From positions 1 to 24,511 of the IMG/VR virus record IMGVR_UViG_2874956758_000006: DNA of 24,511 bases. The stretch is one strand, 5' to 3'. The DNA is from a virus (Duplodnaviria; Heunggongvirae; Uroviricota; Caudoviricetes). Of the stretch, positions 1 to 24,511 are shown one piece after another. Position 1 is the first letter of the stretch, and each line of letters opens with the position of its first letter. A model generated the notes under the pieces. That model was given only the letters and a program-made list of their open reading frames with translations, was not told the DNA's origin and searched no databases. Both the position numbers and the translations under genes were made by a program.

Positions 1-906
1 GTGGATAGCGCACGCGCCCTTATTGCCCGGGGATGGGGAGTAAGCTTAGTCAGCCGTTGTCTCCGGGTGTCGCGTGCGCAGTTGCACGTCATTCTCAGAC
101 GAACCGATGACTGGATGGATGGCCGCCGCAGTCGTCACACTGATGATACGGATGTGCTTCTCCGTATACACCATGTTATCGGAGAGCTGCCCACGTATGG
201 TTATCGTCGGGTATGGGCGCTGCTTCGCAGACAGGCAGAACTTGATGGTATGCCTGCGATCAATGCCAAACGAGTTTACCGGATCATGCGCCAGAATGCG
301 CTGTTGCTTGAGCGAAAACCTGCTGTACCGCCATCGAAACGGGCACATACAGGCAGAGTGGCCGTGAAAGAAAGCAATCAGCGATGGTGCTCTGACGGGT
401 TCGAGTTCTGCTGTGATAACGGGGAGAGACTGCGTGTCACGTTCGCGCTGGACTGCTGTGATCGTGAGGCACTGCACTGGGCGGTGACTACCGGCGGCTT
501 CAACAGTGAAACAGTACAGGACGTCATGCTGGGAGCGGTGGAACGCCGCTTCGGCAACGATCTTCCGTCGTCTCCAGTGGAGTGGCTGACGGATAATGGT
601 TCATGCTACCGGGCTAATGAAACACGCCAGTTCGCCCGGATGTTGGGACTTGAACCGAAGAACACGGCGGTGCGGAGTCCGGAGAGTAACGGAATAGCAG
701 AGAGCTTCGTGAAAACGATAAAGCGTGACTACATCAGTATCATGCCCAAACCAGACGGGTTAACGGCAGCAAAGAACCTTGCAGAGGCGTTCGAGCATTA
801 TAACGAATGGCATCCGCATAGTGCGCTGGGTTATCGCTCGCCACGGGAATATCTGCGGCAGCGGGCTTGTAATGGGTTAAGTGATAACAGATGTCTGGAA
901 ATATAG
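1..906 (+). CDS. insD: IS2 transposase InsD (orfB, 301 aa, GTG start)
   Basis: 301-aa ORF recognised as IS2 InsD; stop TAG 904-906; identical protein on minus strand at 15309-16214. Confidence 0.88.
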
Positions 907-917
907 GGGCAAATCCA
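1..917 (+). mobile_element. IS2, right-hand ~917 bp (element begins upstream of the window)
   Basis: InsD ORF 1-906 has the same protein sequence as the InsD of the complete IS2 at 15307-16628; terminus ...GGGGCAAATCCA ends at 917, matching the reverse-complemented terminus TGGATTTGCCCC starting at 15307. Confidence 0.9.
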
Positions 918-1303
918 GCTACATACCATACAAAGATATCATTGGTGTATGGACTGTATGTCACGGACACACCGGAAAAGACATCATGCCTGGTAAAACG
1001 TATACCGAAGCAGAATGCAAAGCTCTCCTGAATAAAGACCTTGCCACTGTCGCCAGACAAATTAACCCGTACATCAAAGTCGATATACCGGAAACAACGC
1101 GCGGCGCTCTTTACTCGTTCGTTTACAACGTGGGCGCTGGCAATTTCAGAACATCGACGCTTCTTCGCAAAATAAACCAGGGCGATATCAAAGGCGCATG
1201 TGACCAGCTACGTCGCTGGACATATGCTGGCGGTAAGCAATGGAAAGGGCTGATGACCCGTCGTGAGATTGAGCGTGAAGTCTGTTTGTGGGGGCAGCAA
1301 TGA
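918..1303 (+). pseudogene. phage endolysin (T4-lysozyme-like/GH24, lambdoid R-type), 5'-truncated by IS2
   Basis: From 918 the frame reads [24 protein letters not shown]...[14 protein letters not shown], typical of lambdoid lysozymes; the first 13 codons of the listed ORF (881-919) are IS2-derived; stop TGA 1301-1303 overlaps the Rz ATG. Confidence 0.8.
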
Positions 1304-1776
1304 GCAGAGTCACCGCGATTATCTCCGCTCTGGTTATCTGCATCATCGTCTGCCTGTCATGGGCTGTTAATCATTACCGTGATAACGCCATTACCTACAA
1401 AGAGCAGCGCGACAAAAACGCAAGAGAACTGAAGCTGGCGAACGCAACCATTACTGACATGCAGCAGCGCCAGCGTGCTGCTGATGCACTCGATGCTAAA
1501 TACACGAAGGAGTTAGCCAATGCGAAAGCTGAAAATGATGCTCTTCGGAGCAAGCTTGATAATGGTGGTCGGGTGCTCGTCAAAGGAAAATGCCCTGTGC
1601 CATCCTCAGCCGAAACCTCCAGCGCCTCCGGCATGGGCAATGATGCCACCGTCGAACTCTCTCCAGTTGCTGGACGAAACGTTCTCGGTATCCGGGACGG
1701 AATCATCAGCGACCAGACAGCATTGAGAATGCTTCAGGAGTACATCAGGATCCAATGCCTTGGGGGGTGGCGGTAA
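1300..1776 (+). CDS. Rz-like i-spanin (inner-membrane spanin subunit)
   Basis: N-terminal TM segment ([17 protein letters not shown]), coiled-coil-rich body, ATGA overlap with upstream lysozyme stop, embedded Rz1 in +1 frame. Confidence 0.75.
1520..1726 (+). CDS. Rz1-like o-spanin lipoprotein, embedded within Rz
   Basis: Signal peptide plus lipobox (LIMVVGC), proline-rich stretch [11 protein letters not shown] as in lambda Rz1; SD AAGGAG at 1506-1511. Confidence 0.65.
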
Positions 1777-1858
1777 TTTTACTCATTATCCTTCAAATCA
1801 GATTCTGTTGTCAGAGGAATGGGGGAAGCTGGATTCGCAAGAGCTTTTTATGGGCAGT

Positions 1859-22113: not shown

Positions 22114-22221
22114 GTTGCATTATATCAAAATTAGAACTTCATAGCTGATTATTAAAAGTCAACCACGCCCGCCAGTATTCTGTATATTTACTGGCTGGCG
22201 GTCATATTACAGGAATATGAC

Positions 22222-22410
22222 ATGTATTTGACACTCAAAGAATGGAACGCCCGTCAGTTACGTCCACGAAGCCCAGAAACGGTTCGCCGCTGGGTGCGAG
22301 AATGTAAGATTTTTCCACCACCGATAAAGGATGGGCGTGAATATTTATTTCATGAGTCAGCAAAAAAATTACACCTCAAACGACTGGCGGGCTTTTGCAG
22401 AGAATCAGAA
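22222..22410 (+). CDS. xis: excisionase (lambda Xis-like) reading frame, in frame with int and lacking its own stop
   Basis: MYLTLKEWNARQLRPRSPETVRRWVRECKIFPPPIKDGREYLFHESA closely matches lambda Xis residues 1-48; similarity is lost after HESA. Confidence 0.55.
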
Positions 22411-23457
22411 ATGACCGGACGAAGAAGAAACTCAAACACACGTGATCTACCACCCAATCTTTACAATCGAGGTGGATATTATAGTTATCGTGACCCACGT
22501 TCAGGAAGGGAGTTTGGAATCGGAAGAGACAAAAGAATTGCAGTTAATGAGGCTATTGCGGCAAATATGGAATTATTATCCACGCAACATATAAGCTTAC
22601 TGGATAGAATAAAAGGTAATAGCGTAACATTATTCTGCGAGCTGATATTAAATTTCAGAAATGAAATAGAGCGTAGACAATTAAGCACAAACACCATGAA
22701 AAGACACAACCAGAGGTTGAAAATCATAAGTGAATACTTTGGTGGTGTTCCGGTTAAAAATATAGGCATAAGGGAGGTGTACAGCTTTCTTGAAATCAGA
22801 GCAGCTGGGAGTAAATTTGCTATTGCTAACCAGTACAGGGCGCTTTTATCAGACATTTTTAAAACAGCTATAGCTTCTGGTCTTGCCGAGGAAGATCCAG
22901 CTTCTGCAACCAGGCCATTCAGAACTGAAGTGAAGCGCAGTCGACTGTTAATTGACGAGTATCTGTTAATCAGGAAAATAGCAGACGTCCAGAACGAATG
23001 GTTCGGCCTTTGCATGGATCTTGCACTGGTAACAGGACAGCGCGAAGGAGATCTGGCGGCTATGAGATGGGAGGATATAAGAGATGGCAGGCTATACGTG
23101 GAACAACAAAAAACAGGGGCAAAAATTCGCATTTCTCTCCCCACCACGATTTCCAGATTGAATTTAACACTTGCCGATGTACTGGATAACTTGAAAAAAA
23201 TAAACGGTAAAAACGAAAAGTTACTCGGAGGGAAGACAGCCAGGACAATCGCAGCACAGTTCAGGATTGCCCGAGACACATCCGGATTGAAATGGGAAGG
23301 TGACCCACCGCCATTTCATGAAATCCGAAGTTTATCCGGTCGCCTGCACTCAGCAGAAAAAGGCAGTGATTTCACTCAGGCGCTCCTTGGACATCGTTCA
23401 TCCAGCATGACGGATAAATACCGTGACGGACGAGGGAGGGAATGGAAAGACATTTAG
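22411..23457 (+). CDS. int: lambda-family tyrosine integrase
   Basis: MTGRRRNSNTRDLPPNLYNRGGYYSYRDPRSGREFGIGRDKRIAVNEAIAANMELL parallels lambda Int MGRRRSHERRDLPPNLYIRNNGYYCYRDPRTGKEFGLGRDRRIAITEAIQANIELF; C-terminal catalytic region with HEIRSLSGR...LLGH. Confidence 0.85.
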   Translation: MTGRRRNSNTRDLPPNLYNRGGYYSYRDPRSGREFGIGRDKRIAVNEAIAANMELLSTQHISLLDRIKGNSVTLFCELILNFRNEIERRQLSTNTMKRHNQRLKIISEYFGGVPVKNIGIREVYSFLEIRAAGSKFAIANQYRALLSDIFKTAIASGLAEEDPASATRPFRTEVKRSRLLIDEYLLIRKIADVQNEWFGLCMDLALVTGQREGDLAAMRWEDIRDGRLYVEQQKTGAKIRISLPTTISRLNLTLADVLDNLKKINGKNEKLLGGKTARTIAAQFRIARDTSGLKWEGDPPPFHEIRSLSGRLHSAEKGSDFTQALLGHRSSSMTDKYRDGRGREWKDI

Positions 23458-23692
23458 AATTAATTTCGAATGATTTCGAAATACTACTTGTAATTAATTG
23501 ATTATAAAGGATTAATCCCTAATGGGCATTTGCTTCATGAATGCTCCTTTGCATTTAGCAACTGACTGTAACAGCTAAAATTAGTCGCTTTTGGCGGTGA
23601 ATGCTGAATTAAAACGCAGAATTTTGTCCGATAGTGGTATCGGTGTACCATTCGCGCAGAAGAAAATTCTTAACCTTAATCTGGAATACGCC

Positions 23693-24511
23693 ATGACCAC
23701 ACGCGTGATTGCTCTCGACTTAGACGGCACCTTATTGACCCCGAAAAAGACCTTGCTTCCATCATCGATAGAAGCCCTGGCCCGCGCTCGCGAAGCAGGC
23801 TATCAATTAATCATCGTCACAGGTCGCCATCACGTCGCTATTCATCCTTTTTATCAGGCGCTGGCGCTGGATACACCTGCTATTTGCTGTAATGGCACCT
23901 ATTTGTATGATTATCATGCAAAAACAGTGCTGGAAGCGGACCCAATGCCCGTTAATAAAGCCCTGCAACTCATTGAGATGCTGAATGAACACCACATTCA
24001 CGGTCTGATGTATGTCGATGATGCAATGGTCTATGAGCACCCGACCGGGCATGTCATTCGCACGTCTAACTGGGCGCAAACCTTGCCGCCGGAACAGCGT
24101 CCGACTTTCACACAAGTCGCTTCTCTGGCTGAAACGGCGCAACAAGTTAACGCCGTATGGAAGTTCGCCCTGACGCACGATGACCTGCCGCAATTGCAGC
24201 ATTTTGGTAAGCATGTCGAACATGAACTGGGACTGGAGTGTGAATGGTCCTGGCACGATCAGGTTGATATTGCACGCGGCGGCAACAGCAAAGGTAAACG
24301 TTTGACGAAATGGGTTGAGACACAAGGTTGGTCGATGGAAAACGTCGTGGCATTCGGCGATAACTTTAATGATATCAGTATGCTGGAAGCCGCTGGTACA
24401 GGCGTGGCGATGGGCAACGCCGATGACGCGGTAAAAGCGCGCGCCAACATTGTGATTGGTGATAACACCACCGACAGCATTGCCCGGTTCATTTATAGCC
24501 ACCTGATTTAA
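23693..24511 (+). CDS. ybhA: Cof-type HAD-IIB phosphatase (ybhA-like pyridoxal-phosphate phosphatase), chromosomal
   Basis: MTTRVIALDLDGTLL (HAD motif I DxDGT), TGR (motif II), GDNFNDISML (motif IV); start at ATG 23693 rather than the extended listed ORF; gene symbol from memory. Confidence 0.6.
   Translation: MTTRVIALDLDGTLLTPKKTLLPSSIEALARAREAGYQLIIVTGRHHVAIHPFYQALALDTPAICCNGTYLYDYHAKTVLEADPMPVNKALQLIEMLNEHHIHGLMYVDDAMVYEHPTGHVIRTSNWAQTLPPEQRPTFTQVASLAETAQQVNAVWKFALTHDDLPQLQHFGKHVEHELGLECEWSWHDQVDIARGGNSKGKRLTKWVETQGWSMENVVAFGDNFNDISMLEAAGTGVAMGNADDAVKARANIVIGDNTTDSIARFIYSHLI

Follow-up and report, generated by a model that had tools for sequence, protein, structure and literature searches.

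[quoted passage not shown] Its RacR repressor is essential, by silencing ydaS/ydaT (PMC5700373, PMC5700377), while RalR and RalA constitute a type I toxin-antitoxin pair (PMC4041452). More generally, grounded or domesticated defective prophages are those in which att-site loss and an excision defect lead to irreversible lysogeny, after which deletions, inversions and IS insertions ensue (Ramisetty and Sudhakari 2019, PMC6379469). The element described here matches this concept, with no conceptual difference.

Identity of the element and its relatives

The stretch of DNA analysed (24,511 bp, hereafter the window) shares 100% identity with CP026831.1 (GCA_002950055.1) across positions 1-16447 (L005) and 12222-24511 (L009), a genome named as Sh. 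dysenteriae in PMC9830988. It comprises ~20 kb of Rac-like lambdoid prophage and 4.7 kb of IS DNA, and is probably what remains, on the attR side, of such a prophage stranded at pgl of Shigella dysenteriae. As in Rac, an HTH-only repressor gene is divergent from ydaS/cro and ydaT, small genes of the DUF1391/ydfB type, YdaE and RecE are encoded, RalR/RalA adjoin xis-int and a truncated DUF977 (ydaW-type) gene lies at the edge of the surviving block. Both elements are defective and have kept the int-to-replication block. Unlike Rac, which occupies ttcA, the window element is located at the pgl start codon, has lambda-like int and xis genes and different replication genes (with a DnaB-type helicase), and encodes a RecE without a nuclease domain and no RecT, with Gam and an AAA_24 ATPase instead. 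In addition, it is interrupted by IS2, IS600 and IS30 and has an inverted late block.

Near-complete EIEC-like relatives are found in FDAARGOS_944 (pgl), CFSAN029787 (ttcA) and RMDEC465 (yebY), sharing 94-99.9% identity with the window over the early, lysis, DedA, terminase and head genes. FDAARGOS_944 has the int gene (98.8% identity), the att core and the DedA moron in common with the window, the lysis-DedA block being 99.4% identical. In contrast to the window, which carries extra lesions, these relatives retain the ancestral order, a holin, four tRNAs, the Q region and complete modules for the head and tail, while FDAARGOS_944 also bears an ipaH effector gene (ipaHb) beside attL, which is absent from the window and from this locus.

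Insertion sequences

The four IS elements recognised in the sequence-only reading (two IS2, IS600 and IS30) are present and make up 19.3% of the window, but they represent three insertion points in phage DNA because IS30 is nested in IS600. IS2 copy 1 (1..917, + strand), located in the endolysin gene and with its OrfB rve domains present, is cut by the window start; the whole element (L005 4208-5538) shares 99.8% identity with copy 2. The 18 bp to its left (GATGGTCTGGAAGGTGTC) correspond to the endolysin codons DGLEGV and are contiguous with window position 918 onward. No target duplication was found in its flanks, although simple IS2 insertions typically carry one. IS2 copy 2 (15298..16628, - strand; 1331 bp), which separates the PL-proximal small genes from the Rha region, has a 5-bp target duplication (CTGGT) and is therefore a simple insertion. 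The IS600 copy (7368..9854, + strand; 1264 bp, termini read directly) forms a rearrangement junction joining DUF2213' to DUF977', and its directly read flanks (CAT/GTC) contain no target duplication. It is interrupted, just past its frameshift window, by IS30 (7695..8915; 1221 bp, 2-bp duplication AC). Beyond the opposite end of the late block, an inverted IS600 fragment adjoins the endolysin codons, at a distance of 21 bp from IS2 copy 1.

Shigella chromosomes carry 229-348 IS elements, with 9.26 per 100 kb in Sd1 (PMC7373316). Published Shigella densities give an expectation of 1.2-2.3 IS elements for 24.5 kb, against the four observed (Poisson P = 0.04-0.20). The IS density is near the Shigella genome average, with no marked excess.

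Lysis, cargo and head genes

The endolysin is truncated, as had been proposed. Compared with the intact 165-aa RrrD of CFSAN029787, the RrrD-type remnant (918..1303, + strand; Pfam Phage_lysozyme) lacks residues 1-38, and with them the SAR segment and the catalytic Glu motif GLEGV. The adjacent Rz spanin gene (1300..1776, + strand; Pfam Phage_lysis) is full length and shares 99.4% identity, without gaps, with that of L014. Two cargo genes follow on the - strand. The product of the first (1859..2371; 170 aa) is a short DedA/VTT-domain membrane protein (Pfam VTT_dom, 51 bits against a cut-off of 33.9; the NCBIfam DedA equivalog match is weak), with homologues confined to Shigella, Citrobacter, Enterobacter and Arsenophonus. 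Lying on the opposite strand, it is a moron. The second, hyp182 (2639..3187; 182 aa), matches phrog_30882 (1.6e-92) and has no match in Pfam, NCBIfam or PADLOC; DNA resembling this gene occurs in 96 complete E. coli genomes.

The terminase small (3207..3758) and large (3761..5380) subunit genes, both on the + strand and identified by Pfam Terminase_2 and PHROG terminase large subunit matches, are full length but stranded, and share 99.6% identity with those of CFSAN029787. Damage to the head module, which the sequence-only reading had placed in a single gene, is borne out by alignment but extends to three, all on the + strand. A 645-bp deletion relative to L003, with its junction at 6426-6435 between the imperfect 10-bp repeats GGCGCAGGCA and GGCGCTGGCA, removes the 3′ end of the portal gene (5380..6447; cut after ~352 of 513 codons) and the 5′ end of the MuF-like gene (6452..7006), while IS600 truncates DUF2213 (7003..7367) at codon 121. 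Independent Logan runs contain the truncated portal allele as well. In relatives, head genes of this type precede a tail module of the baseplate-and-sheath (myovirus-type) kind; in the window, as noted previously, they are followed by neither capsid nor tail genes. The holin, tRNA and Q-region segment, whose loss had been overlooked, is likewise absent from the element.

The proposed rearrangement is substantiated by comparison with the intact EIEC relatives CFSAN029787 and RMDEC465, against which the block at 918-7367 is in reverse orientation. It is flanked by inverted IS600 copies, both with their left ends facing the block, as a local inversion predicts, and is detached from any late promoter.

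Replication, immunity and early genes

The replication region is encoded on the - strand. The truncated gene reported in this operon is DUF977' (9855..9976; alignment to L003 and Pfam), of which 39 of 140 codons are kept, and the frameshift in the DnaB-type helicase gene (10920..12339; Pfam and alignment to L003) results from an 11-bp deletion (GCGGGAAAAAT) at ~11991. DUF1627 (9992..10753; Pfam), a 53-aa ORF (within 9855..13057, between DUF1627 and the helicase) and an HTH/DnaD-like initiator gene (12302..13057; Pfam) complete the region. Next to these are a full-length ydaT (13148..13570, - strand; Pfam YdaT_toxin), cro/ydaS (13557..13832, - strand; 91 aa, Pfam YdaS_toxin) and the repressor gene (13937..14398, + strand; 153 aa, Pfam HTH_3), whose product contains only an HTH domain, the S24 peptidase domain being absent in the Pfam search. 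The lengths of the repressor and cro/ydaS genes are those of E. coli 042. Divergent promoter-like sites lie between the two genes, and repeats common to 13858-13887 and 14526-14578 are candidate OR/OL operators. The immunity module is of the RacR/YdaS/YdaT type.

The PL-proximal genes comprise DUF1391 (14652..14807, + strand), a 67-70-aa ORF (14800..15012, + strand) and a 98-aa ORF (14989..15285, - strand) which starts 12 bp from IS2, with support from Pfam and PHROG hits and from a reconstruction minus IS2. Beyond IS2 lies a full-length Ash/Rha-family antirepressor-type ORF (17017..17865, + strand; Pfam Phage_ASH and Phage_pRha), the 5′ part of which contains IsrK (17068..17144) and C4 antisense RNA (17169..17256) matches above the Rfam gathering scores, a promoter-like site (17033-17061) and a terminator-like hairpin (17122-17139). 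As in the antirepressor control of Gifsy-1 (IsrK/AnrP) and P1 (c4-icd-ant), the IsrK and C4 RNA genes are located directly upstream of the Rha/Ant-type antirepressor ORF and overlap it (PMC4825925). In the window, both predicted RNA genes fall within the portion of the ORF annotated as the Ash domain.

Downstream on the + strand, Pfam/PHROG/NCBIfam comparisons identified a full-length YdaE gene (17882..18163), a 98-114-aa ORF (18190..18534), a RecE N-terminal fragment of 600 aa (18558..20360), and full-length Gam (20472..20771) and AAA_24/Sak4-like ATPase (20777..21874) genes. The RecE fragment covers model positions 1-568 of 877, with a score below the cut-off; it lacks the nuclease domain, as do the RecE proteins of the relatives, a feature missed in the sequence-only reading. 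The RalR toxin ORF (within 21901..22113, + strand) is full length (Pfam DUF1187, 1-61 of 61), and the RalA antitoxin sRNA (21931..22109, - strand) matches its Rfam model over the full length (216 bits against a gathering score of 170). The earlier suggestion that the immunity switch, integrase, Rha, cargo and several small early genes are intact is upheld, the DedA-like gene and hyp182 also being full length.

Integration site and flanks

Pfam Exc, Arm-DNA-bind_1 and Phage_integrase domains occur in one ORF (22222..23457, + strand), in which xis, carrying a 1-bp frameshift at codon 48 (A8 to A7 at ~22362-22368), is fused in frame to int. FDAARGOS_944 has the A8 run and a separate 74-aa Xis, while the frameshifted allele is common to four NCBI assemblies. 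The sequence-only reading did not report this lesion. The int gene itself is full length, with its own start at 22411.

Comparison of the K-12 attB, window attR and FDAARGOS_944 attL sites defined a 13-bp att core (TTCATGAAGCAAA; attR at 23529..23541, - strand) which contains the pgl start codon. Pattern searches of the window and of the 4.6 kb to its left in L005 identified no second exact copy and no attL. The right flank is chromosomal ybhA (23693..24511, + strand; 99% identity to K-12, Pfam Hydrolase_3), while the left flank beyond the window comprises rimO, bssR, a RelE/HTH pair and IS debris. The rimO region is ~80 kb from pgl in K-12, and the tail genes, ipaH and the pgl segment with ~80 kb of backbone may be relocated in CP026831.1 rather than lost.

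The description of the element as grounded, multiply inactivated and rearranged is supported and, if anything, understates its condition, given the missing attL, the frameshifted xis, the absence of Q and holin and the inverted late block. At least eight independent lesions were counted. As a result, the element has lost the capacity for excision, replication, late-gene activation, cell lysis and particle assembly.

Alternative interpretations

An element that is still inducible, or mobilisable with the help of another phage, would be compatible with the intact int frame, the repressor/cro switch and the full-length terminase genes. The absence of attL from the window and from the 4.6 kb to its left (L005), the xis frameshift, the broken helicase, endolysin, portal, MuF and DUF2213 genes, the missing Q, holin, capsid and tail genes, and the separation of the inverted late block from any late promoter make this extremely improbable, and the sequence already effectively refutes it. 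It is also improbable, if less so, that the late (918-7367) and early (9855-23541) blocks derive from two prophages joined by an IS600-mediated chromosomal rearrangement. Such a chimera could account for the lack of a target duplication at the junction IS600 and for the higher identity to CFSAN029787 in the late block (99.6%) than in the early blocks (94-98%); large inversions are also numerous in Shigella, and a second remnant of the same phage family is found at ttcA in other Shigella genomes. However, uneven identity is normal among mosaic lambdoid phages, the two blocks are contiguous within single prophages in three EIEC lineages, the lysis-DedA match in FDAARGOS_944 lies in a prophage that shares the pgl site and int with the window, and the inverted IS600 copies bracketing the late block fit a local inversion.

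The sequence-only reading suggested that selection, either positive or of the addiction type, preserves the immunity switch, int, Rha, cargo and small early genes for their benefit to the host or their capacity to trap it. This appears unlikely for the set as a whole. In its favour, six of seven lesions in phage DNA strike lytic-cycle genes, and a RacR/YdaS/YdaT-type immunity module and an intact RalR/RalA pair are present. The DedA-like protein is on record for S. dysenteriae, S. boydii, S. flexneri and S. sonnei, but its gene occurs in only 2/5426 complete E. coli genomes, and an identical protein is encoded in an 807-bp IS600|DedA|IS110 island in the ttcA-site remnants L016-L019 and in the 1.9-kb contigs L024 and L025. 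This survival in several IS-bounded contexts hints at more than passive persistence, but the remnants were found with DedA as the query and are subject to ascertainment bias. Pooled N:S ratios are 23:8 for the dead lytic genes and 11:8 for the kept ones, a non-significant contrast (pN/pS p=0.35). One kept small early gene is frameshifted at 18306 in the sister strains L008 and L010, the whole immunity switch (the repressor together with cro and ydaT, not singly) is gone from the related remnant L017, the end that would bear ipaH-type cargo is missing from the locus, and the IS density is close to the genome average. The kept genes moreover form a single block adjoining attR, and position alone can therefore explain their survival. 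Addiction-type retention is plausible, by analogy with Rac, for the repressor and RalR/RalA alone.

The joint reading which we consider likely is one of IS-driven dismantling of a Rac-like remnant at pgl, with the rest surviving mostly passively. We infer that losing the lytic functions was either favoured or neutral. What remains intact is one contiguous block, made up of harmless or self-stabilising genes, in which the repressor would have to stay while cro/ydaT and the PL targets stay, RalR would depend on RalA, and the DedA-like moron would persist in its own orientation, presumably with its own promoter.

Proposed decay pathway

The following order of events is inferred from the anatomy of the junctions. 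Following integration into S. dysenteriae at the 13-bp core overlapping the pgl start codon, IS600 would have copied into the endolysin, DUF2213 and DUF977 genes. Inverted IS600 copies could then have recombined to flip the lysis-to-head block (918-7367), and recombination between direct copies could have removed the holin, tRNA, Q and nin segment. IS2 would subsequently have entered the endolysin remnant, with a second copy upstream of Rha, and IS30 would have inactivated the junction IS600. Small deletions of 645 bp in portal and MuF, 11 bp in the helicase and 1 bp in xis would have broken these genes, before additional IS activity linked the rimO region to the left end and removed attL, the tail genes and any ipaH-type cargo from the locus. 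In a published reconstruction, 103 of 114 inversions fall on Shigella branches (PMC8072062). The remnant is, overall, an ordinary and typical example of Shigella genome decay, and provides an additional, heavily IS-driven instance of a grounded prophage in a Shigella background.

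Source, relatives and ancestral layout

The window is matched at 100% identity by CP026831.1 (GCA_002950055.1), which belongs to Shigella dysenteriae (PMC9830988), with positions 1–16447 located in one locus of this assembly (L005) and positions 12222–24511 in a second (L009). The largest share of the window found in one place in any complete E. coli genome is 44%, and parts of it share 94–99.9% identity with prophages of EIEC-like E. coli. The ancestral layout could be derived from three relatives, integrated at ttcA in strain CFSAN029787, at yebY in E. coli RMDEC465 and, like the window, at the pgl/ybhA site in E. 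coli FDAARGOS_944, the int gene of which is 98.8% identical to that of the window. With int drawn at the right, genes for tail, head, terminase, moron, Rz, endolysin, holin, four tRNAs, the Q region, nin-type products, DUF977, DUF1627, helicase, initiator, YdaT and Cro are read leftward, while those for the repressor, several small products, Rha, YdaE, the truncated RecE, Gam, an AAA ATPase, RalR, Xis and Int are read rightward towards attR. The RMDEC465 element is an independent relative undergoing parallel decay, with an IS110 between the Gam and RecE genes and IS4 and IS66 copies in the portal region. Its annotation further includes an internal stop in the helicase and frameshifts in DUF1627 and DUF977, and errors in the assembly could account for some of these calls.

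The window shows the organization of a lambdoid, Rac-like prophage, with an integrase gene beside the att core and a divergent repressor and cro followed by replication genes; it lacks a Q region, a holin, a complete lysis cassette and a complete head and tail module. The claim in an earlier, sequence-only reading that this is an inactivated, rearranged prophage was borne out and slightly understates its condition, which is that of a dead, locked and IS-rearranged Rac-like remnant.

Loss of lytic functions

The lysis cassette is reduced to Rz and an N-terminally truncated endolysin, which has lost residues 1–38 and with them the SAR segment and the GLEGV motif. An 11-bp deletion, GCGGGAAAAAT, frameshifts the helicase, and DUF977 in the replication operon retains 39 of its 140 codons. 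These three lesions had been recognized from the sequence, together with truncation of one head gene; the truncation is confirmed, and the damage extends to three genes, encoding the portal, MuF and DUF2213 proteins. A single 645-bp deletion between imperfect 10-bp repeats removed the 3′ end of the portal gene and the 5′ end of the MuF gene, with the truncated portal allele seen again in independent sequencing runs, while DUF2213 is cut by IS600 at codon 121. Besides these remnants, the head module contains only terS and terL. In agreement with the earlier description, no capsid or tail genes were found in the window, in 4.6 kb to its left in L005 or in about 8 kb to its left in another locus (L021). 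The window further contains no holin, tRNA, Q or nin segment. The negative tRNA scan agrees with the phage tRNA cluster having been lost, and in the relatives the holin/Q segment lies between DUF977 and the endolysin gene.

The RecE match (18558–20360) corresponds to a 600-aa N-terminal fragment covering positions 1–568 of the 877-position exonuclease VIII model. This truncation is common to the relatives and is thus older than the decay in the window. The fragment, which lacks the nuclease domain and is not accompanied by recT, is conserved in all relatives, with Gam and an AAA_24 (Sak4-like) ATPase encoded after it, an arrangement that looks like a replaced recombination module.

Excision and attachment sites

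The N-terminus of the 411-aa 'integrase' ORF is formed by an excisionase (Exc) domain. It might be taken for a normal long integrase like IntR, but this was rejected on the basis of an alignment showing a 1-bp deletion that joins xis to the int frame: a run of eight A residues in FDAARGOS_944 is reduced to seven at about 22362–22368, shifting codon 48 of xis into the frame of int. The int gene itself is intact from its own ATG at 22411 and encodes the Arm-DNA-bind_1, Phage_int_M and Phage_integrase domains. The integrase previously described as intact is full length, but the frameshift in the adjoining xis region (22222–22440) had been overlooked. The fused allele occurs in four NCBI assemblies, making a sequencing error unlikely, and its product is named 'excisionase [Shigella dysenteriae]' by NCBI (WP_128880874.1). 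A 4-bp CTGG duplication is also present just upstream of xis, within the hairpin that follows ralR.

Comparison of K-12, the window and FDAARGOS_944 identified a 13-bp att core, TTCATGAAGCAAA, which contains the pgl start codon; the comparison copies lie at about 4584–4596 of locus L012 and 33467–33479 of the FDAARGOS_944 locus (L014). The attR copy at 23529–23541, 72 bp from int, is the sole exact copy in the window, and none occurs in 4.6 kb of L005 to its left. With this single core copy and a frameshifted xis, the element has the hallmarks of a grounded, or cryptic, prophage. At attL, pgl acquires phage DNA as its new upstream region, including a GAGG ribosome-binding site, and integration thus need not inactivate this gene.

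In the strain that carries the window, the locus lacks its attL/pgl side. Going leftward from the IS2 copy at the start of the window, the flank begins with 18 bp of the endolysin gene. These are followed by part of an inverted IS600 (positions 189 to 1), by remains of an IS4/IS5-family (DDE_Tnp_1-type) element, by a RelE/HTH pair that is common in E. coli and finally by rimO and bssR. The 18 bp of endolysin run on into position 918, with no target duplication (L005 3998–4207), and the inverted 189-bp IS600 left-end fragment, located 21 bp from the IS2 copy, is cut by the DDE_Tnp_1-type fragment. On the K-12 map, rimO, judged by its proximity to yliI and the gsi operon, is located some 80 kb away from pgl. 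By this map, a backbone stretch of roughly 80 kb (pgl, bio, uvrB, moa ... dgcI) would have been deleted or relocated at the left junction (L005 1–3100).

Insertion sequences and a proposed reconstruction of the rearrangements

Four insertion sequences are present, as originally called, namely two IS2, one presumed IS600 and one IS30. The window opens within the first IS2 copy (1–917), which is 99.8% identical to the second (15298–16628). The latter is 1331 bp in length, has IS2 termini and OrfA/OrfB with an rve domain, and is bordered by a 5-bp CTGGT duplication, indicating simple insertion. A 98-aa ORF without a family match (14989–15285, minus strand) starts 12 bp from this copy, which separates it from its former upstream DNA, and outward transcription from IS2 may provide new control.

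The element at 7368–9854, which we take to be IS600 from the sequence-only reading and from its TGAGG...CCTCA ends, encodes OrfA (HTH_Tnp_1) and OrfB (rve). Its 2487 bp correspond to 1264 bp of IS600, a nested IS30 of 1221 bp and 2 bp of duplication. The IS30 (7695–8915) has imperfect terminal inverted repeats, a 383-aa transposase (Pfam HTH_38 and rve) and a 2-bp AC duplication, and the matching DNA in E. coli is annotated as IS30 by PGAP. It is inserted directly past the IS600 frameshift window and hence inactivates this IS600 copy. A second such composite, 99.9% identical including the IS30/IS600 junction, is found about 6 kb to the left of the window (L021 18532–20513), showing that the nested pair was copied or recombined as one unit. 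The 3-bp duplication typical of IS600 is not present at 7368–9854, where the flanks are CAT and GTC, and the element lies between two unrelated gene fragments, which marks it as a recombination junction, where no duplication is expected.

The late block, extending from the endolysin remnant to the head genes (918–7367), is flanked by inverted IS600 copies with both left ends toward the block. In the simplest history, IS600 would have entered the endolysin, DUF2213 and DUF977 genes, after which recombination between inverted copies would have flipped the late block and recombination between direct copies would have removed the segment from the endolysin 5′ part to the DUF977 3′ part. IS2 and IS30 insertions, small deletions and the IS-mediated loss or relocation of all DNA to the left of the endolysin gene would have followed. 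An early model had the junction IS600 recombining with a copy in DUF977, with the late block and the Q segment inverted as one; it was revised, as the left IS600 fragment adjoins the endolysin and not DUF977. The favored history fits the published biology of Shigella, where chromosomes carry 229–348 IS each (PMC7373316) and 103 of 114 reconstructed inversions map to Shigella branches (PMC8072062). The IS density of the window itself shows no clear excess, with four IS per 24.5 kb against the 1.2–2.3 expected from published Shigella densities (Poisson P = 0.04–0.20).

Retained regulatory and early modules

The immunity switch had been considered intact, and the repressor (153 aa), Cro/YdaS (91 aa) and YdaT all match full-length E. 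coli alleles. Pfam searches recovered the lambdoid order of HTH_3 repressor, YdaS/Cro, YdaT, HTH_36 initiator and DnaB helicase, with divergent promoter-like sites. The repressor contains only HTH_3, with no S24 peptidase domain, and is divergent from the ydaS-ydaT operon. The operon products score 30.8 bits for YdaS_toxin (cut-off: 30) and 44.7 bits for YdaT_toxin (cut-off: 21), and their 96%-identical E. coli counterparts are assigned by PGAP to the YdaS and YdaT families. The promoter-like sites and the repeats common to 13858–13887 and 14526–14578 look like putative OR and OL operators. A repressor that is essential because derepression is toxic is known only in the case of K-12 RacR (PMC5700373, PMC5700377); the repressor in the window is a different allele.

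The RalA sRNA (Rfam RF02694) is matched over positions 1–179 of 179 (216 bits; gathering score: 170), opposite a RalR ORF matching positions 1–61 of 61 of Pfam DUF1187. RalR/RalA is a type I toxin–antitoxin system in which RalA neutralizes the toxic RalR (PMC4041452), and the pair in the window is predicted to be of this type. Rfam matches to IsrK (17068–17144) and the C4 antisense RNA (17169–17256) fall inside the Ash-domain 5′ part of the Ash/Rha ORF (17017–17350). This region has its own promoter-like site and a terminator-like hairpin; either it is dual-use, or the start of the long ORF has been over-called. Gam, the AAA_24 ATPase, YdaE, Rz, terS and terL are also full length, and so are both opposite-strand cargo genes, as had been proposed. 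Like the Rac prophage of K-12, the window keeps its immunity region and early block.

The DedA-like moron and selective retention

The first cargo gene (1859–2371, minus strand) encodes a 170-aa DedA-like protein with a VTT domain (Pfam PF09335; 51.3 bits; cut-off: 33.9). For equivalence to a characterized DedA protein (the NCBIfam DedA equivalog PRK10847, or UptA), its NCBIfam scores of 30.6 bits (cut-off: 236) and 19.2 bits (cut-off: 250) are below both thresholds, and it represents a short, divergent subfamily. The second cargo gene, hyp182 (182 aa; 2639–3187, minus strand), matches no NCBIfam or Pfam family and only a PHROG of unknown function. PADLOC detected no credible defence system among the cargo and early genes.

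The identical DedA-like protein occurs in at least three IS-bounded contexts: the window, an 807-bp IS600-DedA-IS110 island in other Shigella genomes, within remnants at ttcA (9796–10603 in L016–L019), and repeat-bounded 1.9-kb contigs of other assemblies with the order terS′-hyp182-DedA-Rz′ (L024 and L025). It has been named from all four Shigella 'species' but is present in only two of 5426 complete E. coli genomes. This distribution is suggestive, but the survival loci were found by searching with the DedA-like sequence itself and so form a biased sample. That the moron is a pathoadaptive gene restricted to Shigella/EIEC, travelling with an ipaH-carrying phage family and kept by selection as the prophage decays, strikes us as rather improbable.

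The pattern of lesions had been interpreted as selective retention of host-beneficial or addictive functions. Pooled nonsynonymous to synonymous differences from the closest relatives are 23:8 in the dead lytic genes versus 11:8 in the kept genes, a direction that fits relaxed constraint on the former but is not significant (p = 0.35) with so few substitutions. The small early genes were said to be intact, and the ORF at 18190–18534 is indeed kept in the window, but the same gene is already frameshifted by an extra T in a T-run at 18306 in two sister strains (L008 and L010). Their assemblies (GCA_031665835.1 and GCA_053979195.1) otherwise differ from the window by two SNPs (19341 and 21192) over overlaps of 12.3 kb and 7.9 kb. 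In one related remnant at ttcA (L017), the genes for the repressor, Cro and YdaT have been deleted as a group, with Rha, DicB and DedA still in place; this joint loss is compatible with addiction logic, and also with simple adjacency. Selective retention may be regarded as a reasonable textbook hypothesis (PMC6379469 and the literature on Rac), neither proved nor refuted by sequence.

In the near-complete FDAARGOS_944 prophage, the T3SS effector gene ipaHb lies between the tail-fibre genes and attL (L014 30761–33479); the corresponding attL end is missing at the window locus. This arrangement suggests that ipaH genes were delivered as phage morons, a point of relevance as the mechanism of ipaH integration has been called uncertain (PMC8072062).

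The window is a further case of a well-known kind and matters little alone, since IS-riddled, rearranged and excision-dead prophages are the expected state in Shigella. It provides a worked example, junction by junction, of the inversion and deletion of prophage segments through IS600 recombination, and illustrates that a frameshifted xis can go unnoticed in a list of 'intact' genes. Its one modest lead, the DedA-like moron recurrently surviving in Shigella remnants, may deserve a specialist's time, as may the FDAARGOS_944 relative at pgl with ipaHb by attL, which bears on the delivery of chromosomal ipaH genes.
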